DNA from: Octopus vulgaris
Taxonomy: Eukaryota
Length of the DNA: 64,000 nucleotides
NCBI GenBank assembly: GCA_951406725.2
Contig: OX597828.1
Location: forward strand, 40,672,001 to 40,736,000
Direction of reading: 5' to 3'
The notes beneath the pieces are model-generated. The model was not told the origin of the DNA. It saw nothing but the letters and a program-made list of their open reading frames with translations, and made no database searches. Below, piece after piece: positions 4,385 through 38,563 of this stretch. How positions within the stretch are numbered: position 1 is the stretch's first letter; every line of letters starts with the position of its first letter. The translations under genes were made by a program, and so were the position numbers.

Positions 4385-4672
4385 GATTTCCCCTGAGACG
4401 GCTTTGTTGGACAAGTTTAAACGGTTTAAAAACCATCTTATATTTATTAAAGATGACGATAATGGTGGTGGTGGTTGCAATCTGCTCACCCACTTTTCAA
4501 TTCTCAGAACCTCACAACAAAAGGGGTCAGGCTCTCTTGTATAAGAAACACTGCACTGTGCAATTCTTTGTCTTTTTTTTAGTGAAATTTGGCTACTATT
4601 TCTAGCCTCTGGAAAATTTATTACTGTAAAATGTTTTTTTTTCGTCAACACACAAGGTATAGTCTATAAATT
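4385..4672 (+). repeat. Left copy of ~290-bp direct repeat flanking satellite island 1 (right copy 7548-7844)
   Basis: gatttcccctgagacgg...agtctataaatt is present on both sides of the island, with about 8 differences including (GGT)4 vs (GGT)7. Confidence 0.95.
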
Positions 4673-7547
4673 CTATGGGCATCCTCTTTGATCTCTGTCG
4701 GCACCTTCTTTGATCTCTATGGGCATCCTCGTCGATCTTTGTCAGCACCCACTTTGATCTACGTCGTCATCCTCTTTGATCTCTGTCGGCACCCTCTGTG
4801 ATCTCTGTCGACACTCTCTTGGATCTCTGTCGACACCCTCTTTGATCTCTATGGACATCCTCTTTGATCTCTGTCGGCACCCTCTTTGATCTCTGTCGGC
4901 ACACTCTTTGATCCATGTCGACACCCTCTTTGATCTCTGTCGGCACCCTCTTTGATCTCTGTCGGCACCCTCTCTGATCTATGTCAGTACCCTCTTTGAT
5001 CTATGTCGGTACACTCTTTGATCTATGTCGGCTAAATCTTTGATCTGTGTCAACACTCCTCTTTGATCTCTGTCGACACCCTCTTTGATCTATGTCGGCA
5101 CCCTCTTTGATCTCTGTCGGCACCCTCTTTGATCTCTGTCGACACCCTCTTTGATCTCTGTCGGCTACCTCGGTGATCTATGTCGGCACATTCTTTGATC
5201 TCTGTCAGCACCCTCTTTGATCTCTATGGACATCCTCTTTGATCTCTGTCGGCACCCTTTTTGATCTCTATAGGCATCCTCGTTGATCTATGTCGGCACC
5301 CTCTTTGATCTCTATGGGCATCCTCTTTGATCTCTGTCGGCACCCTCTTTGATCTATATCGACACCCTCTTTGATCTCTGTCGGCACCCTCTTTGATCTC
5401 TGTCGGCACCCTCTTTGATATATGTCGGTACCCTCTTTGATCTTTGTCTGCACCCTCTTTGATCTATGTCGGCATCCTCTTTGATCTATGTCGGCATCCT
5501 CTTTGATCTTGTTCGGTACCCTCTTTGATATGTCGGCACTCCTCTTTGATCTCTTCGGCAACCTCTTTGGAATGTCAGGAATGTCAAGAATGTCTGGAAT
5601 GTCAAAAATTGGAATATCAGGAATGTATGGAAAGTCAGAATGTCTGGAATGTCAGGAATGTCAGGAATATCTGGAATGTCATGAATGTATGGAATGTAGG
5701 AATGTTTAGAATGTCAGGGATGTGAAGTATGTCTGGAATGTCGGGAATGTATGGAATGTCAGGAATGTCTATAATGTCTGGAATGTCAGGAATGTCAGAA
5801 TCTCAGGAAAGCATGGAATGTCTGGAACGACTGGAATGTCAGGAATGTCTTGATTTCGTGGAATTTCATAAATGTATGGAATGTCAGAATGTCAGGAATG
5901 TCTGGAATATTTTTCGGCACAATCTTTGATCTCAGTCGGCACCCTCTTTGATCTCTATGGACATCCTCTTTGATCTATGTCGGCACCCTCTTTGATCTAT
6001 GTCGGCATCCTCTTTCATCTCTATCGACTCCCTCTTTGATGTCTGTCGGCACACTCTTTGATGTCTGTCGGCACCCCCTTTGATCTGTGTCAACACCCTC
6101 TTTGATCTCTGTCGACACCCTCTTTGATCTCTGTCGGCACCCTTTTTGATCTCTTAGGCACCCTCCTTGGAATGTCAGGAATGTAAAGAATGTCTGGAAT
6201 GTCAAAATTGGAATGTCTGGAGTGTCAGGAATGTATGAAAAGTCAGGAATGTCTGGAATGTACGGAATGCCCTGAATATCAGGAATGTGAATAATGTCTG
6301 GAATATCAGGAATGTCGGGAATGTATGGAATGTCAGGAATGTCTAAAATGTCTGGAATGTAAGAAAATGGAATGTCAGGAATGTCATTAATGTCTGGAAT
6401 GTCAGGAATATCTGGAATGTCAGGAATGCCTGGAATGTCTCAAATGTCAGCAATTTCTGTAATATCAGGAATGCCTGGAATGCCTGGAATGACCGGAATG
6501 TCAGGAATATCTGGAATGTCAGGAATGGTTGGAATGTCAGGAATGTCTGGAATGTCTGGAATGTCAGGAAAGTCAGGAATGTCAGAATGTCTGGAATGCC
6601 TTGAATGTCTGGAACGACTGGAATGTCAGGAATGTCTGGAATGTCTTGAATTTCATAAATGTATGGAATGTCAGGAATGTCTGGAATATCTGTCGGCACC
6701 ATCTTTGATGTCTTTCGGCACCGTCTTTGATCTGTGTTTGCACGGTTTTTTATATCTGTCGCCACGATCTTTGATCTCAGTCGACATGCTCTTTGATCTC
6801 TGTCGGCACCATCTTTGATCTCTATCGGCACCCTCTTTAATCTATGTGGGCACCCTCTTTGATCTATGTCGGCACGCTCTTTGATCCCTGTCGACACCAT
6901 CTATAATCTCTGTCGGCACCGTCTTTGCTCTCTGTCGGCATCCTCTTTGATCTCTGTCGGCACCTTCTTTGATATATGTCGGTACCCTCTTTGATCTCTG
7001 TCGACACCCTCTTTGATCTCTGTCGGCACCCTCTTTCATCTCTATGGACATTCCCTTTGATCTCTGTCGGCACACTTTTTGATCTCTATGCGCCTTTTCT
7101 TTGATCTCTGTCGGCACCCTCTTTGATCTCTGTCGGCATCCTCTTTGATCTCTGTCGGCACCCTCTTTGATCTCTGTCGGCACCCTCTTTGATCTGTGTA
7201 AACACTCCTCTTTGCACTCTGTCGGCACCCTCTTTGATCTCTGTCGGCACCCTCTTTGATCTCTGTCGGCACCCTATTTGATCTCTGTCGACACCCCTCT
7301 TTAATCACTGTCGGCACCCTCTTTGATCTCTGTCGGCACCCTATTTGATCTATGTCGGAACCTTCTTTGATATATGTCGGTACCCTCTTTGATCTCTGTC
7401 GACACCCTCTTTGATCTATGTCGGTACCCTCTTTGATCTCTGTCGGCACCCTCTTTGATCTCTCTCGGCACCATCATTGGTCTATGGAACCGGTTTGTCA
7501 GCACCGTCTTTGATCTTCGTCGGCATACTCTTTGATCTCTGTCGGCA
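4673..7547. repeat. Composite satellite island 1: 22-bp monomer (TTTGATCTCTGTCGGCACCCTC) with two blocks of 9-bp monomer (GGAATGTCW) at ~5569-5909 and ~6169-6688
   Basis: Tandem periodicity read directly from the sequence. Confidence 0.97.
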
Positions 7548-7844
7548 GATTTCCCCTGAGACGGCCTTTGTTGGACAAGTTTAAACGGTTTAAAAACCAT
7601 CTTATATTTATTAAAGATGAAGATAATGGTGGTGGTGGTGGTGGTGGTTGCAATCTGCTCACCCACTTTTCAATTCTCAGAACCTCACAACAAAAGGCGT
7701 CAGGCTCTCTTGTATAAGAAACACTGCACTGTGCAATTCTTTGTCTTTTTTTAGTGAAATTTGGCTACTATTTCTAGCCTCTCGAAAATTTATTCTTGTA
7801 AAATGTTTTTTTTTCGTATACACACAAGGTATAGTCTATAAATT
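7548..7844 (+). repeat. Right copy of ~290-bp direct repeat flanking satellite island 1
   Basis: Aligned by eye to 4385-4672. Confidence 0.95.
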
Positions 7845-8676
7845 TAGGATGCTTTTGAAATATACTATATTTTATACATCAGAATATATATACTTTCTCA
7901 CACAACAATTAAGAAATATTTATTTTAAATCGTTCATCTTCCCCGCCCACACACAAAAATTAGTTTGGGCGCGATTTTTTTTCCTTCGTGAAAATCGTGC
8001 GGGTGAAAAGATAAATGGGGGTGAGGGTGAAATTTCCGTGGCTTCCACCTCACTCCACTCCATTTTCGGACCTCAAAAAGGGTTTTGTAGCATATTAAGA
8101 GGTCACAGGAATTCATTCAACGAAAAAAAAAATTTTTTGCAATGATTCCTGGATGGGAGGGTCCCCTCCTCTTCCGAACCAAACTAGGGGATTTGTAGCA
8201 TATTAGGAGGTCAGAGTACTTGATTCCACGCAAAAAATCCGAGTTTTTGTTTTCTTTTTTTCTTATTGAAAATCGTGCGGGTGTTAATATAAAAATTTTC
8301 CCAAATGGCCATAGAGAACAGGGATGTATTAAGAATAATAATTCTTTCTGCTATAGGCACAAAGCTAGTGATTTGGGGGAGGGAAGAATTTAGTCGATGT
8401 TATTGATCTCCAGAAGTTGACTGGATCGTTATTTTATCTACCCCTGGGACATAAAAGGCAATGTCAACTTTGCTGGAGTTTGAACTCAGAACGTCAAACC
8501 GGAAGAAAATAATAATGGTTTCTAGTTTAAGCACATGGTCAACAATTTTGTGGGGAAGGATTTAGTCGAGACGATCGACCCACAGTACTTGACTGGTACT
8601 TCATTTTATTTACCTCTGAGGGACGAAAAGTAGAGTGTTCTGTTGGACTTCCTGAATGACAAGCCAAACGAAAAAT

Positions 8677-9391
8677 TATCTAGAATATTTTAAGTAATGC
8701 GGCCTACCTAATTACGAGCCATGCCTTGTGCAACCCGCTTCTCGGAAAAGGTTGCTCAGGTCTGCTTTAGAAAGATCTTGCCTGGCGCTCTAATAATTTC
8801 TTATACTATCAAAGACGTTGATTGATGCTTGTTGTTTAACCTCCAGTCAGCTCCGATCAAGCAAATATGACATTAGATATAGTTCAGTCACGATCACTTT
8901 ACCTGCATGTATTTCTCAGACTTCCTATACAGTGTTCTTCATTTTGTAAGATCAGGGATATCTTAGCTGCCATTTCTAGCAGATCTGGCAAAAGACACCA
9001 TAGCTCACACAATGGTTTGTCTTGTTAGTTTTATTAATTTTAAATGCATTTCTGAAATTGTATTCCACTCAAAGAATCCAGGCATAGTATATCTGGGAAA
9101 GGGATCTTTTCGGTTTGAACGATCCTGGGAAAGCATTGTACTATATGTCCTTCTCTTTTTTCTTTAAAGATGAGAGAGCGTAATGTGAAGGAAATTTGGC
9201 TGATATTTCTAGCGAGCTGAGCGACTAAATAAGAGGCTTCCATGTTCTCTCAAATTAATTGAGGTTTATAACGGAGGGGAAAATGATATATGACATCCGT
9301 GTTTTTCTCGAAGCCAATGTAGCACAAACTGGTCTTGACAGAACTTAGCTTAATAAAAGTCGCTCTGTTGGGGGCCTCTAGGTGATCGTTG
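8677..9391 (+). repeat. Left copy of ~710-bp direct repeat flanking satellite island 2 (right copy 23982-24691)
   Basis: tatctagaatattttaagtaatgcggcct...ctaggtgatcgttg is present on both sides, with roughly 15-20 scattered differences. Confidence 0.95.
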
Positions 9392-12300
9392 GACCCTCTT
9401 TGATCTATGTCGGCACCCTCTTTGATCTATGTCGGCACCCTCTTTGATCTATGTCGGCAAACACTTTGATCTCTGTTGTCACCCTCTTTGAACACTGTCG
9501 GCACCCTCTTTGATCTCTGGAAATTTGGTCCAAGGATTTTCTAACTTCTTGAAAATTTGGTCGAAAAAATTCATGGGAAGTTCCGAGGATTCTCTAACTA
9601 CCTGGAAATTTGGTCGAAAACTTCATGGTAAGTTCCGAGGATTTTCTAACTTCCTGGAAATTTAGTCGAAAACTTCATGGATAGTTCCGAAGATTTTCTA
9701 ACTTCCTGGAAAATTGGTCGAAATTTTCATGGGAAGTTCCGAGGATTTTTCTAACTTCCTTGAAATTTGGTCGAAAACTTCATAGGAAATTCCGCGGATT
9801 TTTCTAACTTCCTGGAAATTTGGTCGAAAACTTAATTGGAAGTTTCGAGGATTTTCTAACTTACTGGAAATTTGGAAGAAAACTTCATGGTAAGTTCCGA
9901 GGATTTTCTAACTTGCTGGAAATTTGGTCGAAAACTTCATGGATAGTTCCGAAGATTTTCTAACTTCCTGGAAAATTGGTCGAAAATTTCAAGGGAAGTT
10001 CCGCGGATTTGTTTTTTAACTTCCTCAAAATTTGGTGGAAAACGTCATGGGAAATTCCAAGGATTTTCTAACTTCTTGGAAATTTGGTCGAAAAATTCAT
10101 GGGAAATTCCGAGGATTTTTCTCTTCTGAAAATTTGGTCGAAAACTAGGAAGTTTCGAGGATTTTCTAACTTCCTGGAAATTTGGTCGAAAACTCATGGG
10201 AAGTTCCGAGGATTTTCTAACTTCCTGGAAATCGAAAACTTCATGGATATTCCGAAGATTTTCTAACTTCTGGAAAATTCGTCGGGAATTTCCGAGGATT
10301 TTCTAACTTCCTGAAATTTGGTCGAAAACTTCATGGAAGTTCCGAGGATTTTCTAACTTCCTGAAATTTGGTCGAAAACTTCATGGATAGTTCCGAAGAT
10401 TTTCTAACTTCCTGGAAAATTGGTGAAATTTTCATGGGAAGTTCCGAGGATTTTCTAACTTCCTGAAATTTGGTCGAAAACTTCATGGGAAGTTCCGAGA
10501 TTTTCTAACTTCCTGGAAAATTTGGTCGAAAACTTCATGGGAAGTTCCGAGGATGTTCTAACTTCCTGGAAATTTGGTCGAAAACTTAATGGATAGTTCC
10601 GAAGATTTTCTAACTTCCTGGAAAATTGGTAGAAATTTTCATGGGAAGTTCCGAGGATTTTCTAACTTCCTTGAAATTTGGTCGAAAACTTCATGGGAAT
10701 CCGAAGATTTTCTAACTTCCTGGACATTTGGTCGAAAACTTCATGGGTAGTTCCGAAGATTTTCTAACTTCCTGGAAAATTGGTAGAAATTTTCATGGGA
10801 AGTTGGAACTTCCTGGAACTTTGGTCGAAAACTTAATAGGAAGTTTCGAGGATTTTCTAACTTCCTGGAAATTTGGAAGAAAACTTCATGGTAAGTTCCG
10901 AGGATTTTCTAACTTCCTGGAAATTTGGTCGAAAACTTCATGGATAGTTCCGAAGATTTTCTAACTTCCTGGAAAATTGGTCGAAAATTTCAAGGGAAGT
11001 TCCGGGGATTTTCTAACTTCCTCAAAATTTGGTCGAAAACGTCATGGGAAATTCCGAGGATTTTCTAACTTCTTGGAAATTTGGTCGAAAAATTCATGGG
11101 AAGTTCCGAGGATTCTCTAACTACCAGGAAATTTAGTCGAAAATCTCATGGGAAATTTCCGAGGATTTTCTAACTTCCTGGAAATTTGGTCGAAAACTTC
11201 ATGGGAAGTTCCGAGGATTTTTCTAACTTCCTGAAAATTTGGTCGAAAATTTCAGGAAGTTCCGGATTTTCTAACTTCCTAAAATTGGTGAAAAGTCATG
11301 GGAAATTCCGAGGATTTTCTAACTTCTGGAAATTTGGTCCTGAAAATTTGGTCGAAAACTTCATGGGAAGTTCCGAGGATTTTCTAACTTCCTAGAAATT
11401 TGGTCGAAAACTTCATGGATAGTTCCGAAGATTTTCTAACTTCCTGGAAAATTGGTAGAAATTTTCATGGGAAGTTCCGAGGATTTTCTAACTTCCTTGA
11501 AATTTGGTCGAAAACTTCATGGGAAGTTCCGAAGATTTTCTAACTTCCTGGAAATTTGGTCGAAAACTTCATGGGTAGTTCCTAAGATTTTCTAACTTCC
11601 TGGAAAATTGGTAGAAATTTTCATGGGAAGTTCCGAGGATTTTCTAACTTCCTGGAACTTTGGTCGAAAACTTAATAGGAAGTTTCGAGGATTTTCTAAC
11701 TTCCTGGAAATTTGGAAGAAAACTTCATGGGAAGTTCCGAGGATTTTCTAACTTCCTGGAAATTTGGTCGAAAACTTCATGGATAGTTCCGAAGATTTTC
11801 TAACTTCCTGGAAAATTGGTCGAAAATTTCAAGGGAAGTTCCGGGGATTTTCTAACTTCCTCAAAATTTGGTGGAAAACGTCATGGGAAATTCCGAGGAT
11901 TTTCTAACTTCTTGGAAATTTGGTCGAAAAATTCATGGGAAGTTCCGAGGATTCTCTAACTTCCTGGAAATTTGGTCGAAAACTTCATGGGAAGTTCCGA
12001 GGATTTTCTAACTTCCTGTAAATTTGGTCGAAAACTTCATTTGGTCGAAAACTTCATGGGTAGTTCCGAATATTTTCTAACTTCCTGGAAAATTGGTAGA
12101 AATTTTCATGGGAAGTTCCGAGGATTTTTCTATCTTCCTTGAAATTTGGTCGAAAACTTCATGGGAAGTTCCGAGGATTGTCTAAATTTGGTCGAAGACT
12201 TCTTTGATCTCTGCCGTTCCTTCTCTTTAATGTATGTCGGCATCCTCTTTGATCTATGTCGGCACCACCTTTGATCTCTGTCGGCACCCTCTTTGATCTC

Positions 12301-15300
12301 TATCGACATCCTCTTTGATCTCTGTCGGCACCCTTTTTCATCTGTGTCGGTTCCCTCTTTGATCTATGTCGGGACCGCCTTTCGTATCTGTCGGCACCCT
12401 CTTTGATCTATGTCGGCATCCTCTTTGATCTATGTCGGTATCCTTTTTGATCTCTGTCAACGCCCTATTTGATCTGTGTGGACACATTCTTTATTCTCTG
12501 TCGGCACCATCTTTGATCTCTGTCGACACTTCTCTTTGATCTCTGTCGGTACTCTTTTTTATCTCTGTCGGTACCCTCTTTGATCTATGTCGGCACCCTC
12601 TTTGATCTATGTCGGTAACCTCATTGATCTATGTCGGCACCCTCTTCGATCACTGTCGGTCCCCTCTTTGATTTCTGTCGGCATCCTATTTGATGCCTCT
12701 CGGCACCCTCTTTCATATATGTCGGTACCCTCTTTGATCTCTGTCGGCAAACCTCTTTGATCTCTCTCGGCATCGTCTTTCATCTTTGTCGGCATCCTCT
12801 TTCATTTCTGACGGCATCCTCTTTGATATTTGTCGACACCATCTTTGATCTATGTAGGCACCCTCTTTAATCTATGTCAGCACCCTCTTTGATCTCTATC
12901 GGTACCCTCTTTGATCTCTGTCACCATCCTCTTTGATCTCTGTCGGCGCCCTTTTTGATCTATGTCGGTACCCTCTTTGATCTTTGTCGGCACCCTCTTT
13001 GATTTCTGTCGACACTTTCTTTGATCTCTTTCGGTACCCTTTTGATCTGTGTCGGCATCCTCTTTGATCTCTATCGGCATCCTCTTTGATCTCTGTCGAC
13101 ACCCTCTTTGATCTCTGTCGGCATCCTCTTTGATGTCAGTCGGCACCCTCTTTGATATATGCCGGTACCCTCTTTGGTATATGTCGGCACCCTCTTTTTC
13201 TAACTTCCTGGAAATTTGGTCGAAAACTTCATGGGAAGTTCCGAGGATTTTCTAAATTCCTGGAAATTTGGTCGAAAACTTCGTGGATAGTTCCGAAGAT
13301 TTTCTAACTTCCTGGAAAATTGGTAGAAATTTTCATGGGAAGTTCCGAGGATTTTCCAAATCCCTGGTTATTTGGTCGAAAACTTCATGGGAAATTCCGA
13401 AGATTTTTCTAACTTCCTGGAAATTTGGTCGAAAACTTCATTGGAAGTTCCGAGGATTTTCTAACTTGCTGGAAATTTGGTCGAAAACTTCAAGGGAAGT
13501 TCCGGGGTTTTTGTAACTTCCTGGAAATTTGGTCGAAAACTTAATGGAAAGTTTCAAGGATTTTCTAACATCCTGGAAATTTGGTCGAAAACTTCATGGG
13601 AAGTTCCGAGGATTTTCTAACTTCCTGGCAATTTGGTCGAAAACTTCATGGGAAGTTCCGAGGATTTTTCTAACTTCCTGGAAATTTGGTCGAAAACTTA
13701 ATGGAAAGTTTCATGGATTTTCTAACATCCTGGAAATTTGGTCGAAAACTTCATGGGAAGTTCCGAGGATTTTCTAAATTCCTAGAAATTTGGTCGAAAA
13801 CTTCGTGGATAGTTCCGAAGATTTTCTAACTTCCTGGAAAATTTGTAGAAATTTTCATGGGAAGTTCCGAGGATTTTCCAAATCCCTGGATATTTGGTCG
13901 AGAACTTCATGGGAAGTTCCGATGATTTTTTTAACTTCCTGGAAATTTGGTCGAAAACTTAATGGAAAGTTTCATGGATTTTCTAACATCCTGGAAATTT
14001 GGTCGATAACTTCATGGGAAGTTCCGAAGATTTTCTAAATTCCTGGAAATTTTGTCGAAAACTTCGTGGATAGTTCCGAAGATTTTCTAACTTCTTGGAA
14101 AATTGGTAGAAATTTTCATGGGAAGTTCCGAGGATTTTCCAAATCCCTGGATATTTGGTCGAAAACTTCATGGCAAATTCCGAAGATTTTTCTAACTTCC
14201 TGGAAATTTGGTCGAAAACTTCATTGGAAGTTCCGAGGATTTTCTAACTTCCTGGAAATTTGGTCGAAAACTTCAAGGGAAGTTCCGGGGATTTTTCTAA
14301 TTTCCTGGAAATTTGGTCGGAAACTTAATGGAAAATTTCAAGGATTTTCTAACGTCCTGGAAATTTGGTCGAAAACTTCATGGGAAGTTCCGAGGATTTT
14401 CTAAATTCCTGGAAATTTGGTCGAAAACTTCGTGGATAGTTCCGAAGATTTTCTAACTTCCTCGAAATTTGGTCGTAAAATTCATGGGAAGTTTCGAGGA
14501 TTCTCTAACTTCCGGGAAATTTGGTCGAAAATTTCAAGGAAAGTTCCGAGGATTGTCGGTATTCTCTTTCATCTATGTCGGCATCCTCTTTGATATCTTT
14601 CGACACCCTCTTTGATCTATATCTGTACCCTCTTTGATCTATGCCGGCACCCTCTTTGATCTCTGTCAGCATCCTCTTTGATCTCTGTAGGCGCACTCTT
14701 TGGTCTATGTTGTTACCCTCTTTGATCTTTGTCGGCACCCTCTTTGATTTCTGTCGACACTTTCTTTGATCTATGTCGGTACCCTCTTTGATCTGTGTCG
14801 GCATCCTCTTTGATCTCTATCGGAATCCCCTTTGATCTCTGTCAACACCCTCTTTGATCTCTGTCGGCATCCACATTGATGTCTGTCGGCACCCTCTTTG
14901 ATATATGCCGGTACCCTCTTGTGGTATGTCGGCATCCTCTTTGATCTATGTCTGCATCCTGTTTGATCTCTTTGCATCATTTTTTATCTATGTCGTCATC
15001 CTCTTTGATCTCTGCCGACACCCTCTTTGATCTCTGTCGGCATCCTCTTTGATCTCTGTCGGCATCCTCTTTGATCTCCTTCGGCACCCTCTTTGATCTC
15101 TGTCGGCATCCTCTTTGATGTCAGTAGGCACCCTCTTTGATCTATGTCGGTACCCTCTTTGATCTGTGTCGGCACCCTCTTTGATCTATGCCGGCATCCT
15201 CCTTGATCTCTGTCGGCATCCTCTTTGATCTATGTCGGCATCCTCTTTGATGTCTGTCGACACCCTCCTTGATCTATGTCGGCATTCTCTTTGATCTATG

Positions 15301-18300
15301 TCGGCACCCTCTTTGATCTATGTCGACATCCTCTTTGATCTCTGTTGGCATCCTCTTTGATCTATGTCGGCATTTTTTATCTCTGTCGGCACCTTCTTTG
15401 ATCTATGTCGGCACCTTTTTTGATCTGAGTCGACACTCATATTTGATCTCTGTCGGCACCCTCTTTGATCTCTGTCGGTACCGTATTTGATCTTTGTCGA
15501 CACACTGATTGATCTCTGTCGGCATCCTCTTTGATCTATGTCGGCACACTCTTTGATCTATGTCGGCACCGTCTTTGATCGCTGTCGACACCGTCTTTGA
15601 TCTCTGTCGACACCGTCTTTGGTCTCTGTCGGCACCGTGTTTGATCCAGACATTCCAGACATTCCTGACATTCCTGACATTCCAGACATTCCAGATGTTC
15701 CAGACATTCCTGATATTCCAGACATTCCAGACATTCCTGACATTCCTGACATTTGAACCGGTTTGATCAGGCTTGATCCAGTTTGCGCCGGTTTGGTCCG
15801 GTTTCAACCGGTTTGTCGGTACCGTCTTTGATCATTGTCGGCACACTCTTTGAACATTCCTGACATTTGAACTCGTTCGATTAGGCCTGATCCGGTTTCA
15901 ACCGGTTTGATCCGGTTTGATCTTTTTAGAACCGGTTTGAACAAGTTTGATCCGGTTTGAACAAGTTTGATCCGGTTTGAACCATTTTGAACCGGTTTGA
16001 TCCGCTCCAAAACCGGTTTGATCCGATTTGTACCGGTTTGTCGGTATCGTCTTTGATCTTTGTCGGCACCGTCTTTGATCTCTGACATTCCTCACATTCT
16101 TCGCATTCCTGACATTCCAGACATTCCTGACATTCCGGGCATTCCTGACATTCCTTGCATTCCAGACATTCCTGACATCCCAGACATTCCTCACATTCCA
16201 GACATTCCAGACATTCCTGATATTCCTGACATTTGAACCGGGTCGATAAGGCTTGATCCAGTTCGAACCGGATTGATCCGGTACTCTCTTTGATCTATGT
16301 TGGCACCCCCTTTATCTCTATCGGCACTCTCTTTGAACTCTGTCGGCACTGTCTTGACCCGGTTTGAACCGGTTTGATCCGGTTTGAATCGGTTTAATCT
16401 GGTTTGAACCGGTTTGAACCAGTTTGAACCGGTTTGATCCGGATTGAACCGGTTTGAGCCGGTTTGTCGGCACCGTCTTTGATCTCTGTCGGCACCCCTT
16501 TCATCTCTGTCGGCAACCCCTTTGATCTCTGTCGGCACTCTCTTTGATCTCTGTCGGCACTCCCTTTGATCTCTGTCGGCACCGTCTTTCATCTCTGTCG
16601 GCACCGTCTTTGAACTTTGAACCGGTTTGATCCGGTCTGACCCGGTTTGAACCGGTTTCATCCGGTTTGAACCGGTTTGAACCGGTCTGGACCGGTTTGA
16701 TCCTGTGTGGAACTGTTTGATCCGGCTTGAACCGGTTTGATCCGGATTGAACCAGTTTGATCCGGATTGAACCGGTTTGAACCGGTTTGTCGGCAACGTC
16801 TTGGATCTCTGTCGGTACCCCTTTGATCTCTGTCGGCAACCCCTTTGATCTATGTCGGCACCCTCTTTGATCTATGGTCGGTACTCTCTTTGATTTCTGC
16901 CGGTACTCCCTTTGATCTCTGTCGGCACCCTCTTTGATCTCTGTCGGCATCCCCTTTGATCTCTGTCGGCACTCTGTTTGATCTCTGTCGGCACCACTTT
17001 GATCTCTGTCGGCTCCCTCTTTGATCTATGGTCGGTACTCTCTTTGATCTCTGTCGGTACTCCCTTTGATCTCTGTCGGCAGCCTCTGTGATCTCTGTCG
17101 ACACTCTCTTGGATCTCTGTCGACACCCTCTTTGATCTCTATGGAATCCTCTTTGATCTATGTCGGCACCCTCTTTGATCTCTGTCGGCACACTCTTTGA
17201 TCCATGTCGACACCCTCTTTGATCTCTGTCGGCTCCCTCTTTGATCTCTGTCGGCACCCTCTCTGATCTATGTCAGTACCCTCTTTGATCTATGTCGGTA
17301 CACTCTTTGATCTATGTCGGCTAAATCTTTGATCTGTGGCAACACTCCTCTTTGATCTCTGTCGGCACCCTCTTTGATCTATGTCGGCACCCTCTTTGAT
17401 CTCTGGCGGCACCCTCTTTGATCTCTGTCGACACCCTCTTTAATCTCTGTCGGCTACCTCAGTAATCTATGTCGGCACATTCTTTGATCTCTGTCGGCAT
17501 CCCCTTTGATCTCTGTCGGCATCCCCTTTGATCTCTGTCGGCATCCCCTTTGATCTAGTCGGCACTCTGTTTGATCTCTGTCGGCACCCCTTTGATCTCT
17601 GTCGGCACTCCCTTTGATCTCTGTCGGCACCCCCTTTGATCTCTGTCGGTACTCCCTTTGATCTCTGTCGGAACCCTCTTTGATCTAAGCCGGCATCCCC
17701 TTTTATCTCTGTCGCCATCACCTTTGATCTATGTCGGCATCCTATTTGATCTCTGTCGGCACTCTATTTGATCTCTGTCGGCACTCCTTTGATCTCTGTC
17801 GGCAACGTCTTTGATCTTTGAACCGGTTTGATACGGTTTGAATCGGTGTGATTCGGTTTGAAGCGGTTTGAACCGGTTTGATCCGGCTTGAACCGGTGTA
17901 AACCGGTTTGAACCGGTTTGATCGGGTTTGAACCGATTTGATTTAGTTTAAACCGGTTTGTCGGCACCGACTTTTATCTCTGTCGGCAACCCCTTTGATC
18001 TCTGTGGGCACTCTCGTTGATCTCTGTCGGCCACCCCTTTGATCTCTGTCGGTACTCTCTCTGATCTCTGTCGGCACTCTGTTTGATCTCTGTCGGCACC
18101 CACTTTTATCTCTGTCGCCATCACCTTTGATCTATGTCGGCATCCCCTTTGATCTCTGCCGGCATCCCCTTTGATCTATGTCGGCATCCTATTTGATCTC
18201 TGTCGGCACTCTATTTGATCTCTGTCGGCACTCCTTTGATCTCTGTCGGCAACGTCTTTGATCTTTGAACCGGTTTGATACGGTTTGATTCGGTTTGTAC

Positions 18301-21300
18301 CGGTTTGTCGGCACCGTCTTTGATCTTTGTCGGCACAGTCTTTGATCTCTGTCGGCACTGACTTTGATCTATGTCGGCACAGTCATTGATCTCTGACATT
18401 CCTGACATTCCAGAAATTCCTGACATTCCAGACATTCCTGACATTCCAGTAATTCCTGACATTCCAGACATTCCTGACATTCCAGAAATTCCTGACATTC
18501 TAGACATTCCTGACATTCCAGACATTCCAGACATGCCGGACATTCCGGACATTCCAGACATTACTGAAATTCCTGAAATTCCAGACATTCCTGACATTCT
18601 TGACATTCCAGACATTCCTGACATTCCAGACATTCCAGACATTCCATTCATTCCAGACATTCCTGACATTCCAGACATTCCAGAAATTCCTGACATTCCA
18701 GAAATTCCTGGCATTCCAGACATTCCAGACCGGTTTGATCCGGTTTGAACCGGTTTGAACCGGTTTGAACCGGTTTGATACGGTTTGATCCGGTTTGAAC
18801 CTGCTTGATCTGGTTTTAACCGATCTCTATCGGCACCGGCTTTGATCTCTGACATTCCTCGCATTTCAAACATTCCTGAAATTTCAGACATTCCTGACAT
18901 TCCTGACATTCCAAACATTCCTGACATTTCAATCATTCCTGAGATTCTAGACATTCCAGACATTCCTGACATTCCTGTCATTCCAGACATTTCTGACATT
19001 CCAGACATTCCAGATATTCCTGACATTCCTTACATTCCTGACACTCCTGAAATTCCAGATATTCCTGACATTCCAAACATTCCAGACATTCCAGAATTCC
19101 TGATATTCCTGACATTTGAAACGGTTAGATCAGGCTTGATCTGGTTTGAACCGGTTTGGACCGGTTTGATCCGGTTTGATCTGGTTTGAACCGCTTTGAT
19201 CCGGTTTGTATCAGTTTGTCGGCACCGTCTTTGGTCTTTTTCGGCACACTCTTTGATCTCGGCACATTCCTGTCGGCACAGTCACTGATCTCTGACATTC
19301 CTGACATTCCAGAAATTCCTGACATTAGAGATATTAATGACATTCCAGACATTCCTGACATTCCAGACATTCCTGACTTTCCAGAAATTCCTTACATTCC
19401 AGACAATCCTGACATTCCAGACATTCCCGACATTCCAGACATTCCAGACATTCCAGATATTCCTGACATTCCAGACATTCCTGAATTTCCAGACTTTCCT
19501 GACATTCCTGACATTCCAGATATTCCTGACATTCCAGACATTCCTGACATACCAGACTTTCCAGACATTTCAGAATTCCTAACATTTGAACCGGTTCGAT
19601 CAGGCTTGATCTGGTTTGAACCGGTTTGATCCCATTTGAACCGGTTTGAACCGGTTTGACCCGGCTTGATCCAGTGGCAACCGGTTTGATCTGGTTTGAA
19701 CCGATCTCTTACGGCACCGACTTTGATCTCTGACATTCCTCACATTCCAAACATTCCTGAAATTTCAAACATTCCAGACATTCCTGACATTCCAGACATT
19801 CCTGTCATTACAGACAATCCTGACATTCCAGACATTCCAGACATTCCAGATATTCCAGACATTCCAGACATTCCTGACATTCCTGAAATTCCAGGCATTC
19901 CTGACATTCCAGACATTCAAGACATTCCAGAATTCCTGACATTCCAGAATTCCTGACATTCCTGTCATTTGAACTGGTTCGATCAGGCTTGATCTGGTTT
20001 GAACCGGTTTGGACCGGTTTGATCCGGTTTGATCTGGTTTGCACATGTTTGTCGGCACCGTCTTTGATCTTTATCGGCACAGTCTTTGATCTCTGTCGGC
20101 ACCGTCTTTGGTCTTTCTCGGCACACTCTTTGGTCTCTGTCGGCACTGGCTTTGATCTCTGTCGGCAGAGCCATTGATCTCTGACATTCCTGATATTTCA
20201 GCAATTCCAGACATTCCAGACATTCCTGACATTTTAGACATTCCTGACATTACAGACATTCCTGACATTCCGGACATTCCAGACATTCCTGACATTCCAG
20301 ACATTCCATTCATTCCAGACATTCCTGGCATTCCAGACATTCCAGATATTCCTGACATTCCACACATTCCACACATTCCTGACTTTCCTGAAATTCCAGA
20401 CATTCCAGGCATCCTTTGATCTCTTTCGGCACTGTCTTTGAACTCTGTCGGCACAGTCATTGATCTCTGACATTCCTGACATTCCAGAAATTCCTGACAT
20501 TCCAGACATTCCTGACATTCCAGACATTCCTGACATTCCAGACATTCCTGACATTCTAGACATTCCTGACATTCCAGTCATTCCAGACATTCCAGATATT
20601 CCTGACATTCCAGACATTCCAGACATTCCTGACATTCCTGATATTCCAGACATTCCTGACATTCCTGACATTGAACCGGTTCGATCAGGCTTCATCCGGT
20701 TTGATCTGGTTTGAACCGGTTTGATCCGGTTTGTACCGGTTTGTCGGCACCGTCTTTGAACTTTGTCGGCACACTCTTTGATCTCTGTCGGCACAGTCTT
20801 TGATCTCTGTCGGCACAGTCATTGATCTCTGACATTCCTGACATTCCAGAAATTCCTGACATTCCAGACATTCCTGACATTCCAGACATTCCTGACATTT
20901 GAACCGGTTCTCTGTCGGCTCACTCTTTGATCTCTATCGGAACCCTCTTTGATCTATATGGTCATCCTCTTTGATCTCTGTCGGCACCCTCTTTGATCTC
21001 TATGGACATCCTCTTTGTTTTCTGTCGGCACCATCTGTGATCTCTGTCGGCACCCTCTTTGATCTCTGCCGGCACCCTCTTTGATCTCTATTGACACCCT
21101 CTTTGATCTCTGTTGGCACCCTATTTGATCTATGTCGGCACCCTCTTTGATCTTTGTCGACATCCTGTTTGATCTCTGTCGGCTCCCTCTTTGATCTCTG
21201 TAGACAGCCTCTTTGATCTCTGTCGGCACGCTCTTTGATCTCTGTCTGCACCCTCTTTGATCTCTGTTGGCACCATCTTTGATCTCTGTCGACACCCTCT

Positions 21301-23981
21301 TCGATCTCTGTCGGCACCCTCTTTATGTCTGTTGGCACCCTCTTTGATCTCTGTCGGCACTCTCTTTGATCTCTGTCGGCACCATCTTTGATCTATGTCG
21401 GTACCTTCTTCGATCTCTCTCGGCGTCATCTTTGATCCCTGTCGGCACACTCTTTGATCTATGTCGGTACCCTCTTTGATCTATATCGGCACCCTCTTTG
21501 ATCTTTGTCGGCACAGTCATTGATCTCTGACATTCCTGACATTCCAGAAATTCCTGACATTCCAGACATTCCTGACATTCCAGACATTCCTGACATTCCA
21601 GACATTCCAGACTTTCCAGATATTACAGACATTCCAGACATTCCTGACATTCCTGACATTCCTGACATTCCAGACATTCCAGACATTCCAGAATTCCTGA
21701 CATTCCTGACATTTGAACTGGTTCGATCAGGCTTGATCTGGTTTGAACCGGTTTGGACCGGTTTGATCCGGTTTGATCTGGTTTGAACCGGTTTGATCCG
21801 GTTTGTACATGTTTGTCGGCACCGTCTTTGATCTTTATCGGCACAGTCTTTGATCTCTGTCGGCACCGTCTTTGGTCTTTCTCGACACACTCTTTGATCT
21901 CTGACATTCCCGACATTCCTGACATTCCAGACATTCCAGACATGCCGGACATTCCGGACATTCCAAACATTCCTGTCATTCCAGACATTCCAGACATTCC
22001 TGACACTCCTGAAATTCCAGACATTCCTGACATTCCAGATATTCCTGACATTCCAGATATTCCTGACATTCTAGACATTCCTGACATTCCTGAAATTCCA
22101 GACATTCCTGACATTCTTTGATCTCTGTCGGCACTGTCTTTGATCTCTGTCGGCACAGTCATTGATCTCTGACATTCCTGACATTCCAGAAATTCCTGAC
22201 ATTCCAGACATTCCTGACATTCCTGAAATTCCAGACATTCCTGACATTCCTGACATTGAACCGGTTCGATCAGCCTTGATCTGGTTTGAACCGGTTTTAA
22301 CCGGTTTGATCCGGTTTGATCTGGTTTGAACCGGTTTGATCCGGTTTGTACCGGTTTGTCGGCACCGTCTTTGATCTTTGTCGGCACACTCTTTGATCTC
22401 TGTCTGCACAGTCTTTGATCTCTGTCGGCACTGTCATTGATCTCTGACATTCCTGACATTCCAGAAATTCCTGACATTCCAGACATTCCTGACATTCCAG
22501 ACATTCCTGACATTCCGGACATTCCAGACTTTCCTGACATTCCTGACATTTGAACCGGTCTTTGATCTCTGTCGGCACCGTCTTTGATCTTTGTCGGCTC
22601 CGTCTTTTGATCTCTGTTATTCCTGACATTCCAGACATTCCTGACATTCCAGACATTCCTGACATTCCAGACATTCCTGACATTCCGGACATTCCGGACA
22701 TTCCAGACATTCCAGACATTCCTGACATTTGAATCGGTTCTCTGTCGGCACCCTCTTTGATCTCTGTCGGCACCCTCTTTGATCTCTGTCGGCTACCTCT
22801 TTGATCTCTGTCGGAACCCTCTTTGATCTATATGGGCATCCTCTTTGATCTCTGTCGGCACCCTCTTTGATCTCTATGGACATCCTCTTTGATTTCTGTC
22901 GGCACCCTCTGTGATCTCTGTCGGCACACTCTTTGATCTCTGTCGGCACCCTCTTTGATCTGTGTCAACACTCCTCTTTGATCTCTGTCGGCACCCTCTT
23001 TGATATCTGTCGACACCCATTTCTATCTCTGTCGACACCCTCTTTGATCTCTGTCGGCACCTTCTTTGATCTCTGCCGGCACCCTCTTTGATCTCTATTG
23101 ACACCCTCTTTGATCTCTGTTGGCACCCTCTTTGATCTTTGTCGACACCCTCTTTGATCTCTGTCGGCACCCTCTTTGATCTCTGTCGGTACCCTCTTTG
23201 ATCTATGTTGGTACCCTCTTTGATCTATGTCGGCACTCTCTTTGATTTATGTCGGCACCCTCTTTGATCTCTGTCGGCACCCTCTTTGATCTATATCGGT
23301 ACCCTCTTTGATCTATGTCGGCACTCTCTTTGATCTCTGTGTGTACCCTCTTTAATCTATGTCGGCACCCTCTTTGATCTCTGTCGGTACCCTCTTTGAT
23401 CTATGTCGGCACCCTCTTTGATCTATGTCGGCACCCTCTTTGATCTATGTCGGCACCCTCTTTGATCTCTGTCGGCACCCTCTTTGATCTCTGTCGGTAC
23501 CCTCTTTGATCTCTGTTGGCACCCTCTTTGATCTATGTCGGTACCCTCTTTGATATATGTCGGTCCCCTATTTAATCTATGTCGGCACCCTCTTTGATCT
23601 ATATCGGCACCCTCTTTGATCTCTGTCGACACCCTCTTCGATATCTGTCGGCACCCTCTTTGATCTCTGTTGGCACCCTCTTTGATCTCTGTCGGCACTC
23701 TCTTTGATCCATGTCGCCACCATCTTTGAACTATGTCGGCACCTTCTTCGATCTCTGTCGGCATCATCTTTGATCTCTGTCGACACCCTCTTGGATCTCT
23801 GTCGGCACCCTCTTTGATCTATGTCGGTACCCTCTTTGATCTATGTCGGCACCCTCTTTGATCTCTGTCGGTACCCTCTTTGATCTATGTCGGCACCCTC
23901 TTTGATCTATGTCAGCATCCTCTTTGATCTCTGTCGGCACCCTCTTTGATCTATATCGGTACCCTCTTTGATCTATGTCGG
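9392..23981. repeat. Composite satellite island 2: 22-mer (9392-9518), 52-mer (9519-12200), 22-mer (12201-13196), 52-mer (13197-14553), 22-mer (14554-15645), cyclic 9/10/22-mer zone (15646-22740), 22-mer (22741-23981)
   Basis: Monomers: 52-bp TTTTCTAACTTCCTGGAAATTTGGTCGAAAACTTCATGGGAAGTTCCGAGGA (period checked at 9601 vs 9653); 10-bp TTTGAWCCGG; 9-bp GACATTCCW; 22-bp as in island 1. Confidence 0.97.
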
Positions 23982-24691
23982 TATCTAGAATATTTTAAGT
24001 AATGCGGCCTCCCTAATTACGAGCCATGTCTTGTGCAACCCGCTTCTCGGAAAAGGTTGCTCAGGTCTGCTTTAGAGAGATCTTGCCTGGCGCTCTAATA
24101 ATTTCTTATACCATCAAAGACGTTGACTGATGCTTGTTGTTTAACCTCCAGTCAGCTCCGATCAAGCAAATATGACATTAGATATAGTTCAGTCACGATC
24201 ACTTTACCTGCACGTATTTCTCAGACTTCCTATACAGTGTTCTTCATTTTGTAAGATCAGGGATATCTTAGCTGCCATTTCTAGCAGATCTGGCAAAAGC
24301 ACAGAAGCTCACACAATGGTTTGTCTTGTTAGTTTATTATTTTAAATGCATTTCTGAAATTGTATTCCACTCAAAGAATCCAGGCATAGTATATCTGGGA
24401 AAGGGATCTTTTCGGTTGAACGATCCTGGGAAAGCATTGTACTATGTGTCCTTCTCTTTTTTCTTTAAAGATGACAGAGCGTAATGTGAAGGAAATTTGG
24501 CTGATATTTCTAGCGAGCTGAGCGACTAAATAAGAGGCTTCCATGTTCTCTCAAATTATTGAGGTTTATAACGGAGGGGAAAATGATATATGACATCCGT
24601 GTTTTTCTCGAAGCCAATGTAGCACAAACTGGTCTTGACAGAACTTATCTTAATAAAAGTCGCTCTGTTGGGGGCCTCTAGGTGATCGTTG
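23982..24691 (+). repeat. Right copy of ~710-bp direct repeat flanking satellite island 2
   Basis: Aligned by eye to 8677-9391. Confidence 0.95.
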
Positions 24692-25297: not shown

Positions 25298-25335
<38 letters not shown>

Positions 25336-25364
25336 CTGCTATTTCTAGAAAACCAAGCAGCTAT

Positions 25365-25407
<43 letters not shown>

Positions 25408-25997
25408 CTGCTATTTCTAGAAAACCAAGCAGCTATTTTAATACTTCTTTGTTGGCTCTTCTTGAGTTGAGGGTAAGAGGGTCAGGAGAAGTAGGGTAGT
25501 TCTCTGAAGATTCTTATATCTGTGCATGTAGCTCTGAAGGAGAGATACAAAAGGGTGCATGAGTAGGGTGTCCAACAACCACTTGAGGGTAGGGCCTGAG
25601 AGGAATTTTACAAGGTGGAATAAGAATGCTTTTAGCCCTCAGGATGTTGGGGGACACCTCTGAAAATTCATATTGTTGGGTGGGGAGACTCTGCTGATAG
25701 TTACAGGCTTCTGTTTGATTTTTGGGAGCCTGGACTGATAAAACAACTGAACCTACCCAGCCTTTATAAGTCACACCAAAGAGCTCAGTAAGTCACATCA
25801 GTACTTTGAGATTTGGCTAAGATACTTTACACTGAGTAAAGTCTATTTAGTTCCAAGCTGCTATGGGACTCATCCCCTGTTTTGAGTTTATAATAACTAT
25901 AAGGTTGAGCTTATTGTAGCCAGTGCTCAGGTGCACTACAACTCATCAGAAAAGGGTTGGACAAAGCAGCAATAAGTCAAGTAAAGAAAGACAGTGT

Positions 25998-29010: not shown

Positions 29011-29334
29011 AGTAAAGATTGTTTGCCAACATAACATGGTAGTCCTGGTTTAGGAAGAATGTTGCTGTAATTTAGCCCCAGGAGACATCATTTCCAGCTG
29101 GCTATACAACACGATCTGTGTCCTTATATTTTTGAACAAGGGAATCTAGTACCCCAACTCAGCTCAAAACAATATCTATGTATTGCGATTTCCAGGTTAT
29201 TTCCCTTGTTTGAAAATATAAGGACACAGATCGTGTCGTATAACCAGCTGGAGATGATGTCTCCTGGAGCAAAATTACAGCAACATTCGTCCTAAACCAG
29301 GACTGCCATGTTATGTTGGCAAATAATCTTTACT
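29011..29334. mobile_element. Foldback MITE with ~135-bp inverted arms and ~50-bp spacer
   Basis: agtaaagattgtttgccaacataacatgg... is the reverse complement of ...ccatgttatgttggcaaataatctttact. Confidence 0.85.
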
Positions 29335-31243: not shown

Positions 31244-31825
31244 TGTGTCTGTGTGTGTGTGTGTGAAAGAGAGAGGATGAAAGGAACGGCAGGGGAGAGA
31301 TTACACATTTCAGACATATTCTTAGCAAAAGACAGCCAGCAGCTAAATATTGCTAAATAGAGCAAGTGAGTCATAAAGTAGCATCAATGGTAATTACCAA
31401 AGATAACTGACCAATTTCTAATCACCTCCTCCCCAAATTAGTAGTTGTTTCTTAACTGCTGTTAACTGTTGCGTTAGTTCTTGTTGCTACAGTAGATTGC
31501 TGGTTTGGGTCTGGACTGCTTTAATCTGTCCTGTCATTTCCAAGGTGCTGTTGCTATAGACAACCTCTATACAGTTCAGCACCTATCTGTCTCATTTCAT
31601 GTGTATGTATGTATGTGTGTTTATATGGGAGCTGGCATGCTAATCGTCATAAAGTCAATCAGTCATAAGTCAGATAAATCATAAGCCAATGACGACCTGT
31701 ATTACATGACCTAAAACTATGCCTGTTTTGTGCTATAGTAGAATTTGTTCTACTCTACAGTTCTGAATGCTCGTGTGTGTGTGAGGACGTCTATGTGTAT
31801 GACAATCAGTCTGTCTTTTCCTTAA

Positions 31826-32265
31826 CCCTTTAGCATTCAATTCAGCCATATTTGGCCCAAGTTTTCTACCTGATTTATGTTCAAACCAGTCGGGTCTGGT
31901 CTTTCACTCTTACCCTACAATGTCTTTCTAAAAATGAACATTCACATCATTGAAATATCAAAGCTATGAGTTAATACATGACTAATTCAAAACAATGTGA
32001 ATGAATAAATATTACATTTGACAGAGAAATCAGAATACTAAAGGGTTAATCTTTTAGCATTCAGGTTAATCTGTCAAATATAATGCTCATTTAGTCACTT
32101 TATCTTTAATTAATCATGTGTGTATCATAGCTTCAAAAGAACATTGAATTGATTGTCTATTCTCAGAATGGCATTGTATGGTAGGCTGAGATGTTAGATC
32201 TAACCAGTACAAACACAGAACTGGTAGAATATAAGCCACATACAGCCAGTTTTAATGCAAAATGG
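31826..32265. mobile_element. Two adjacent piggyBac-type MITE copies (31826-32045 and 32050-32265) in opposite orientation, sharing one TTAA
   Basis: Same family as 30331-30551. Confidence 0.75.
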
Positions 32266-35386: not shown

Positions 35387-36881
35387 CTTTCTCATTCATT
35401 TAATTCTTTCTTTTTGAAGTTTGTTGAAGCCAATGTAAAAGTGTTTTGAAGGAAATATCTTGGTCAGCATGACAAAAATGTTACCATGGTCGTCTGTGTG
35501 TGTGTATGTGTGTGTGTGTGTGTACGCGCGCTCATGTGTGTATATGCCTTTATCTGTATGTGGATGTAAATAATAATACTTTCAACTGATTGGAAGTGTT
35601 ATCATGTTCATTGTTTTGTCTTGGTATAAAAGATGGCTACAGCAAATATTCTGCTCAATACCACAGATTTGCTTGTCAGTTGTTTGACCTTACCCAGTTG
35701 AGCATGTCCCTTAGTGGCTGTCGATATGTGCATCTCTGATCACGAGCAGGAGTAGTTGGGGAGCATCATAGCCGTGTGTTGAAAGGAATTCTTAGAGGTT
35801 TGGATAATTCACCTTTGGAAACATGGGCGTTTCGTTCAACATCCCTATGATTTTGATGAAATGATTGAATATTTTTAGAATGACATTGTAGGTCAGGTAT
35901 GAGGTGCCAGATCTGGCCAATTTGAACATAAAACAGAATATTTGAGCCAGATATGACCAGTTTAAATGATAAAGAGTTAACCCTTTCATCAACTGACATA
36001 AAGTCACCTTCCTCAATATTACACCCCTTCATTTGAGGGGAGCCTTGTCTTGCAAGTTATTTGGTAACCTCACCTGTTCCACTGCCAGTTAAAAAGAACC
36101 CAGTACACTCTGGAAAGTAGTTTGTGTTAGGAAGGGCATCCAGCTGTAAAACCCATGCCAAAGCAGATAGAGGAGCCAGCACAGTCCTCTGTCAAACCAT
36201 CGGATGCTTGTTTTACAAGAATTGTAACTTTAATCTATTGGTTCTGTTGTTTTTGCTGGTCAACTCAGCCATTGATAAAGAACAAAAGTTCTTAATATGT
36301 CTATCTGAGACTTAAATGGGTCACTCACTTGTTGAGGCCATTAATCCTGTTTGTTGTTAACTTATTTGTACATCTGAACACAGTGATTAAGGTTCAATAT
36401 CTGGGCAGAGAGTTGGTGTGTGGGTCTCTGCCAACATTCCTTCTACATATATACCATCATTTAGCATCCATTTTTCATGCTAGCATGGGTAAGACAGTTT
36501 GACTGGGACTAGTAAACCAGAGAGTTGCACCAGGCTTCAGTCCGTTTTGGCTTGGTTTCTACAGCTAGATTCCCCTCCTAATGCCAACCACTCCAGAGTA
36601 TACTGGGTGCCTTTCACATGTCACCAGCATGGGTGCCTTTTAAGTGCCGTGACTACAATTTCACTTAGTTTGATATGTCTTCTCAAGCACAGCAAATCAT
36701 CACCTCCATGAAACTCAACATTTGAAGATCATACCTCAACACCTCAGCCCACGTTTAGCTAGGCCTACCTCTTCCACAGTTTTCTCTTTTCTGGCAAATA
36801 ATAATGCACCTGAGTACAATAAACAATAAGTTCATTGTATTATAGTTAGATATATATAAGCAATGTAATTATATATATATA

Positions 36882-37641: not shown

Positions 37642-37647
<6 letters not shown>
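36882..37647 (+). mobile_element. Tc1-like transposon, 5' part only (left end plus DNA-binding region of the transposase pseudogene)
   Basis: TA-CAGGGG start. ORF 37319-37705 (...RRKPKLSDRDRQTLMRIVRKDHKSTAPKITAEL...VSKKTVRWELHKAGFHGR) is a typical Tc1 HTH region. It has an in-frame stop upstream and is truncated at (TA)n. Confidence 0.85.
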
Positions 37648-37675
<28 letters not shown>

Positions 37676-38287: not shown

Positions 38288-38563
38288 TAGCTGTCTTTAT
38301 ACATGTCTTATTGCTATTTTCTCTTTTCTGGCAAGTTATAATGCACCTGAGTACAATAAACAATAAGTTCATTGTATTATATTATAGCTACTGGTTTTGA
38401 AATCCTTGTGCACATTTTAGTCTGTTAGTGTCTAAGTGGACCTACATAAATATATGTGGAAACAGACATAAACATAAATATAATCACAAACACACAAAAC
38501 ACATGCATGTGCGTGTGTATACATATATATACTACACATTTATCTATCGTAACATTAATATTT

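Follow-up and report, generated by a model that had tools for sequence, protein, structure and literature searches.

Our analysis showed that a 64,000-nucleotide stretch of the Octopus vulgaris genome (contig OX597828.1, positions 40,672,001 to 40,736,000; hereafter the window, numbered from its first letter) contains two islands of satellite DNA, each enclosed by a direct duplication of hundreds of bases of low-copy flank. The islands are likely to be inherited insertions of pre-existing satellite DNA, and we see about even chances that they originated in homology-directed repair synthesis that was aborted and then completed by end joining, in preference to staggered nicks. What is new here is an inherited, satellite-filled form of a known repair scar, present at two neighbouring sites, relatives having an apparently empty and an apparently half-built state. 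The islands are built of four monomers, S22 (22 bp), S9 (9 bp, GGAATGTCW), S10 (10 bp, palindromic) and S52 (52 bp); the duplicated segments are called D1 and D2 (D in general, lying between a left flank, L, and a right flank, R). Their layout is as follows.

4385..4672, plus strand: left copy of D1, 288 bp of low-copy flank, from pairwise alignment
4673..7547, plus strand: island 1, blocks S22/S9/S22/S9/S22, about 70% S22
4774..5200, plus strand: island 1 copy of an S22 tract common to both islands, compared with island 2
7548..7844, plus strand: right copy of D1, 297 bp, from pairwise alignment
7845..8676, no strand: spacer between the two units, 832 bp, with many dispersed repeats
8677..9391, plus strand: left copy of D2, 715 bp of low-copy flank, from pairwise alignment
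9392..15643, plus strand: left half of island 2, S22 and S52 blocks in alternation
15644..23981, plus strand: right half of island 2, cycles of S22 to S9 to S10, the last block being S22
17064..17489, plus strand: S22 patch resembling island 1, within an S22 block of different subtype
23982..24691, plus strand: right copy of D2, 710 bp, from pairwise alignment

An earlier sequence-only reading had described two islands enclosed by direct duplications of about 290 and 710 bp that abut the satellite directly, and alignment confirmed both duplications at these coordinates (288/297 and 715/710 bp), with satellite directly adjoining both copies in the D1 pair and in the D2 pair. The same architecture does occur twice within 1 kb, as that reading had stated, islands 1 and 2 with their flanks being 832 bp apart. 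The D1 copies differ by 7 substitutions and 3 indel events (1 bp, 9 bp of a TGG repeat and 1 bp) and the D2 copies by 12 substitutions and five one-base gaps, every gap lying in the right copy; the corresponding substitution divergences, 2.4% for D1 and 1.7% for D2, have overlapping intervals. The D2 match can be extended to 9395/24695 across one mismatch and a common ACC. D1 and D2 do not align with each other. With the islands masked, the window holds no further near-identical, non-tandem direct pair longer than 100 bp, and since the two pairs give E values of 9e-128 and 0.0 in the self-comparison of the window, chance is excluded as their origin. The copies are low-copy DNA: the depth of the D2 segment in two related species is 17.5 and 10.4, versus thousands over the spacer repeats.

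The island ends read GATTTC/TAAATT and TATCTA/TCGTTG. In agreement with the sequence-only reading, which had noted the lack of long terminal repeat (LTR) ends, TG..CA is absent from the island and copy boundaries; no outer 4-8 bp repeat with TG..CA ends lies within 10 bp of the boundaries, and none of the four island ends carries an A or T tail. Microhomology at the four junctions, the only four available, amounts to 1, 3, 0 and 2 bp, and AAT stands directly before both L|D boundaries. An interpretation as LTR element, solo LTR, terminal-repeat retrotransposon in miniature (TRIM) or large retrotransposon derivative (LARD) was rejected on the grounds that there are no TG...CA termini and no 4-6 bp outer duplication, and that D1 and D2 do not form one multi-copy family, D2 moreover being at single-copy depth in two related species.

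The architecture is probably biological, that is, real and inherited, as judged from independent sequencing data. Four of 24 listed runs, all four consisting of assembled short-read contigs, were compared to 7523-9416: X1 and X3, from two studies of organism A (the same species; X1 or X3 may be the source sample, not both), X4 from organism B and X10 from organism C. The contig evidence consists of the 32 of 10,488 pieces and 40 of 87 substitution rows listed, with X1 covered to about 80%, and contig tails enter by their length, not by their letters. Assembled contigs break at graph forks and lose branches beside deep repeats. As computed from the window, the 31-mers common to the D2 copies run from 8725 to 9391, and those common to the D1 copies end at 7782. 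X1 record 5 and X3 record 23 both cover 8337-8754 with 0 differences, joining the spacer to the D2 left copy and ending at 8725 + 29. X3 record 24 corresponds exactly to 8725-9391, with 9 substitutions and 3 gaps, and has the right-copy alleles at the 7 substitutions and 3 gaps among the rows listed. For D1, X1 record 1 (7753-7882, 0 differences, depth 52) starts at 7782 - 29 and continues into the right flank. X3 record 17 consists of 570 unaligned nt, then D1 with left-copy alleles, then 40 nt unlike the right flank; a simulation of this record from the window was nearly identical (571-858 with 7 mismatches and 11 gap columns, versus 571-857 with 6 and 12), and a TC microsatellite lies 570 nt upstream in the window, matching the length of the unaligned part.

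Depth and divergence point the same way. The comparison of read depth on the flank copies that the sequence-only reading had recommended gave, in X1, 128 for D2 versus 52, 70, 56 and 62 for records 1, 3, 4 and 5 (about 55 computed for the right flank), about twice the neighbours and not half; in X3, D2 has a depth of 25 versus 7-15. Six spacer records, chosen as orthologous after leaving out records 2, 18, 20 and 21 (10-12 differences, resembling paralogous repeats), show 2 substitutions in 1,372 bp relative to the window (0.15%), versus 19 in 997 bp (1.9%) between the copies (Fisher p 5e-6). The summed depth of the D2 copies is not that of the flank, nor is their divergence allelic, as both would be after a merge of haplotypes; the same argument is weaker for D1. 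The fork positions in two studies, the approximately twofold D2 depth and the contrast of 0.15% with 1.9% together make a haplotype-merge artefact unlikely, and argue strongly for a real duplication at D2 and moderately so at D1. The sequence-only reading had taken seriously the alternative that overlapping haplotype ends were joined through satellite reads. We now leave this only a very slight chance: the predicted forks appear in two samples, right-copy alleles are found in short-read contigs and the spacer alleles agree with the window far better than the copies agree with each other, against which stand the position of all five single-base D2 gaps in the right copy, as would be expected of long-read consensus errors, the fact that no molecule spanning an island was seen, and the lack of doubling on D1 in X3, given that X1 or X3 may be the source sample. 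X3 record 24 lacks two of the five gaps, those at 9114 and 9257, which may be errors of assembly; the island lengths as assembled could likewise be wrong. Joints from 7547 to 9393 or 9396 were considered as deletions and rejected: satellite contigs match both 25-base ends of the compared stretch, 7523-9416, instead.

The contigs of the related organisms add apparent intermediate states of island 2. In organism B, X4 record 32 runs from the spacer through the whole of D2 at a flat depth of 17.5 and its match ends at 9395, the end expected for a contig passing from D2 into the right flank under four of five scoring schemes; its tail of 370 nt would end in an ATTC microsatellite at 25,065. From this alignment end and tail length, organism B appears to have an empty island-2 site, where island 2 may never have been present or may have been lost by recombination between the copies. 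In organism C, X10 record 16 extends unbroken from 8336 to 9406, 15 nt into S22, followed by 42 nt more; the right flank matches 6 of those 15 S22 letters. Its depth is 10.4 versus 9.98-11.3 nearby, where two copies would give about 1.28-fold. Going by this one contig, the left junction is apparently present at the island-2 site of organism C, together with a single copy of D2. Satellite insertion and duplication may therefore be separate events, which argues against a one-step target-site duplication and suggests that island 2 acquired its left junction before its right one. In X10 record 9, D1 continues into its right flank at single-copy depth, which suggests that organism C is without island 1. 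An empty site in a relative, as looked for in a mobile satellite, is indicated for island 2 by X4 record 32, and for island 1 only by the single-copy depth in organism C. The comparison with related species suggested in the sequence-only reading thus gave an apparent empty site in organism B and an apparent left junction with one copy in organism C.

Variation within D2 was observed as well. X1 records 6 and 7 (9086-9208) represent two versions of D2, one of which, in common with organisms B and C, has 9140G plus one additional C at 9178; this suggests conversion or recombination among copies and alleles. Sites 8995 and 9145 were tried as derived characters common to the left copy and organism C and discarded, positions 9140 and 9145 showing all four combinations and 8990-9001 aligning ambiguously.

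The islands themselves (2.9 kb for island 1, and a 14.6-kb mosaic for island 2) contain no coding sequence; the satellite blocks tile them and leave no room for a gene. S22 polarity is constant across both islands, S9 is inverted in island 2 relative to island 1, and all four island ends lie in S22, whose share is 70% in island 1 and 45% in island 2. The two S22-to-S9 and two S9-to-S22 junctions of island 1 have motifs in common, and junction motifs recur in the right half of island 2 (12, 8 and 8 matches to three patterns), where the composite type switches from S22/S52 to S22/S9/S10 within an S22 block near 15,430-15,640. S22 monomers are on average about 10-11% from their consensus (85 and 272 monomers parsed), versus about 2% between the flank copies, and we infer that the inserts were copied from older arrays that had already diverged. 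Positions 4774-5200 and 17064-17489 differ by 9 mismatches and 1 gap in 427 columns (97.7% identity), compared with about 21 mismatches per 200 for the best other register and a background of about 10%, and 121 rare 18-mers fall on one diagonal between the islands. These data suggest that islands 1 and 2 had a template in common or served as templates for each other. Telomerase-like synthesis de novo, with a short template, was rejected in view of the divergence of the monomers (about 10%, versus about 2% for the copies) and the specific string of variants common to the islands. A nested duplication around the 17064-17489 patch was also rejected, the 92% match of its sides being near the background of that S22 subtype.

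The satellite is represented outside the window. S22 contigs occur in all four short-read runs (X1, X3, X4 and X10), and the pattern gave 0 matches in metagenome contigs (38-base and 22-base patterns), 0 in viral contigs and 0 confirmed of 59 pattern matches in prokaryote genomes. In the other 46.5 kb of the window there is no island satellite (best match E 0.89), and no Rfam family was found in 3500-26000. A translated island frame gave 25 and 35 protein matches, nearly all of them collagen-like and of low complexity; the one named record that contains the monomers is the gene model CAI9722894.1 of Octopus vulgaris, a 'hypothetical protein' of 250 aa composed of translated S22 and S10 monomers, which returned only itself when used as query and is in keeping with the octopus origin of the window. 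Its longest exact match to the six frames of the window is 14 residues, and it therefore comes from another array of the satellite family; it is probably a spurious gene model. On the minus strand, the S22/S9/S10 composite at 15644-23981 has few stops, with open frames of up to 389 codons; CAI9722894.1 is an example of how frames of this kind turn up as a spurious gene model. The S52 monomers at 10100-10520 and 11240-11360 carry many small deletions, like poorly polished long-read sequence. Of four 150-nt samples folded against shuffles, only that of S10 folds better (z -6.2; S52 -1.2, S22 +1.0, S9 +2.5), which makes hairpin fragility a weak general argument.

In the mechanism that we favour, aborted repair synthesis followed by end joining, a germline break would occur at L|D, the left edge of the future duplication. 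The left 3' end would invade the intact sister or homolog, copy D and run on into satellite, which could have been present beforehand at D|R in the donor allele (a state suggested for island 2 by organism C) or could have been reached through a template switch to an S22 array nearby. Synthesis would then hop among S22-containing templates, keeping the polarity of S22 fixed and carrying S9, S10 and S52 blocks along, until it aborted in the array and its end was joined, over 0-3 bp of microhomology, to the right end left by the break, which still carried D. The product would be L-D-satellite-D-R, and the length of the duplication would be set by how far from the break synthesis entered satellite. 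Every step here is a proposal; taken together they would yield the geometry, the mosaic insert with its fixed S22 polarity, the ancestral D-to-right-flank junction and the left-junction-only state of organism C. The favoured mechanism may be regarded as a germline counterpart of the 'cycles of templated insertion' described in cancer. It comes close to the template switching into satellite during repair that the sequence-only reading had put forward.

Several observations weigh against this interpretation. The junction from satellite to the right copy of D1 is in none of the 32 contig records listed. X3 record 17 crosses D1 with no fork and at a depth of 9.74, which is not doubled, and the right D1 copy is unseen in X3; similarly, X1 record 8 crosses 9391 into the right flank without a fork, the branch from D2 into satellite being unseen in X1, and the X1 depth also fits one filled and one empty allele. 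The empty site of organism B and the satellite junction of organism C come from one contig each and are indirect. Both D2 copies of the window share 9140A and have no additional C at 9178, and in this they differ from B, C and one of the X1 versions, so that later conversion or recombination would be needed if the left copy came from a C-like allele. None of the steps of the mechanism has been observed and its rivals give the same end product; the junction microhomologies (1, 3, 0 and 2 bp) are no more than chance could give and do not discriminate. Finally, two events 832 bp apart need local clustering, for which the shared tract is the only available argument.

The main rival is retrotransposition with Dualen-like staggered nicks, in which enzymes of a non-LTR retrotransposon would nick the strands 290 or 710 bp apart and reverse-transcribe satellite RNA, giving a giant target-site duplication as proposed for Dualen long interspersed nuclear elements (LINEs). 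Insertions of Dualen-4b with a median duplication of 900 bp provide a precedent (Lopez-Cortegano et al., 2023, PMC9977147), and the AAT before both L|D boundaries, the uniform S22 polarity and the location of all four ends in S22, for which the S22 shares of 70% and 45% leave a chance of about 0.1, would all fit; a broken reverse-transcriptase gene at about 55,000-55,700 indicates that such elements exist in this genome. We nevertheless consider it unlikely, given that the island ends have no poly(A) or poly(T) and the islands no coding sequence, that island 2 is a 14.6-kb mosaic of two composite families plus a foreign patch, that the left junction with one copy in organism C (X10 record 16) requires a later deletion, and that a third candidate duplication in the window, described below, is preceded by CAG and not by AAT.

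That same organism C contig resembles the L-D-satellite allele called for by an offset double insertion, where satellite would have entered one allele at D|R and another at L|D, each time without a long duplication, and unequal crossing-over within S22 would have joined the two. The switch of composite type in an S22 block near 15,430-15,640 could mark such an exchange in island 2, but island 1 is no obvious chimera of two families, no L-satellite-D allele was seen (records 5, 16, 23 and 32 all cross 8676/8677 unbroken), and four insertions plus two crossovers would have to fall in about 1.8 kb while the other 46.5 kb are without island satellite; we regard it as decidedly unlikely. A single crossover between a circle carrying D plus satellite and the chromosome, taking place at D, gives the L-D-satellite-D-R geometry directly. 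Insertion of circles has been proposed as the source of flanking repeats in Arabidopsis (PMC2869330) and Rsp-like satellite occurs in abundance on extrachromosomal circular DNA (PMC7403614). The circle would first have to join low-copy D to satellite, twice and at adjacent sites, and the left-junction-only state of organism C would go unexplained, which leaves circle integration a small chance.

Known systems resemble the octopus islands in part. Dualen-4b_cRei has target-site duplications with a median of 900 bp, and 126 bp is quoted in the same paper for the rotifer element R9 (Lopez-Cortegano et al., 2023, PMC9977147). The sequence-only reading's premise that target-site duplications are typically under about 30 bp therefore fails where large ones are concerned. 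The likeness lies in duplications of hundreds of bases on both sides of an insert; the Dualen-4b insert is a LINE with both restriction-like (RLE) and apurinic-like (APE) endonucleases, whereas the octopus inserts are pure satellite, with neither a LINE, a 3' tail or poly(A) nor coding sequence. In cycles of templated insertion, copied inserts return to the host chromosome and a host segment is re-replicated (Li et al., 2020, PMC7025897). Re-replication of a host segment on both sides of the insert is what the octopus flanks show, together with a mosaic of several templates; templates persisting elsewhere may be represented by the 427-bp tract in both islands (97.7%) and by the other O. vulgaris array (CAI9722894.1), while donors of the remaining sequence were not found. 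Those cycles are somatic, from human cancer and known from breakpoint data, in contrast to an inherited, possibly two-step event in an invertebrate with a satellite insert. The octopus insertions may work in the manner of such a cycle but, their origin in a single event being doubtful, are no more than candidate members of that class.

In C. elegans helq-1 mutants, end joining of abrogated homologous recombination gives tandem duplications of about 100 bp-10 kb (Kamp et al., 2021, PMC8654963). They are direct and of about 0.1-10 kb, a range that includes the 288 and 715 bp found here, with microhomology and occasional templated insertions at their junctions; they arise in repair mutants and are rare in wild type, and the octopus 'junction inserts' of 2.9 and 14.6 kb far exceed the duplications. 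With Dualen, templated insertion cycles and duplications from aborted recombination all in print, the earlier proposal of an undescribed system was too strong. Satellite blocks at new sites are also known for MSAT-11_cRei (PMC9977147) and for the Rsp-like satellite of Drosophila simulans, where Rsp-like/1.688 hybrids are joined at microhomologies and move as higher-order units, with a 32-bp duplication at four Rsp-like cluster junctions (Sproul et al., 2020, PMC7403614). The passages on MSAT-11_cRei report no long flank duplication, and Rsp-like enters existing 1.688 clusters with a short duplication, in contrast to the low-copy target and a duplication 9 to 22 times longer in octopus. Flanking repeats longer than 30 bp surround transposed Arabidopsis genes (PMC2869330), and 'adjacent overlapping breakpoints' have been described in human cells (PMC12807874). 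CAI9722894.1 shares S22 and S10 translations with the islands but belongs to another array, for which no flank information is available. In mostly open papers, supplements being outside the scope, we found no literature on these satellites or on cephalopod satellite insertions with duplications of this size.

The way in which satellites reach new loci is an open question, since an array usually wipes out the scars of its own insertion. In this window both scars have stayed intact, with an apparent empty site in one relative and a half-built state in another, so that the rival mechanisms predict different, testable outcomes within one genus. Aborted repair that picks up satellite would be a route for the spread of satellites to new sites. 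Should the pattern hold across the genome, it would steadily supply octopus genomes with small duplications and would caution against purging such flank pairs as haplotype overlaps; if it is a local accident, it would offer a clean case, in the germline, of the repair scar seen in cancer genomes and in worm mutants. Bolder is the idea of a recurrent germline process that disperses S22-anchored composite satellites to low-copy sites in octopus, with flank duplications of 0.3-0.7 kb as its routine scar and possibly a retroelement enzyme acting in trans, the first such system in an animal; this we hold to be rather doubtful.

A 65-bp direct repeat at 36780-36844 and 38317-38381 (3 substitutions), preceded by CAG, encloses 1,472 bp of non-satellite DNA. 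This pair is a candidate third insertion with a long flanking duplication and hints at a process not confined to satellites, which would be a general one if this pair is indeed a third case. Inside the pair lies a Tc1/mariner-like transposase remnant at about 36880-37650, between TA runs, with a Pfam HTH_Tnp_Tc3_2 match at 37304-37705.

Elsewhere in the window, two minus-strand frames at 48545-49042 and 61854-62189 match the C-terminal and N-terminal parts, respectively, of Pfam Mob1_phocein and are probably exons of a MOB-family gene, the islands lying about 24 kb downstream of the lower frame. The broken reverse-transcriptase gene, at 54999-55713 on the minus strand, has RVT_1 matches in two frames. 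A very young 34-bp minisatellite at 41302-41950 (19.1 copies, 99% matches, strong G skew) ends in a dispersed repeat, and a 66-bp tandem array of 5.6 copies at 63638-64000 is truncated where the window ends. Two exact tandem duplications with no insert are present, at 25301-25437 (72 bp, containing a GA microsatellite) and at 58249-58318 (35 bp). Long inverted repeats at 29011-29334 (330 columns at 85%) and 31822-32183 (274 columns at 72%) are probably elements resembling miniature inverted-repeat transposable elements.

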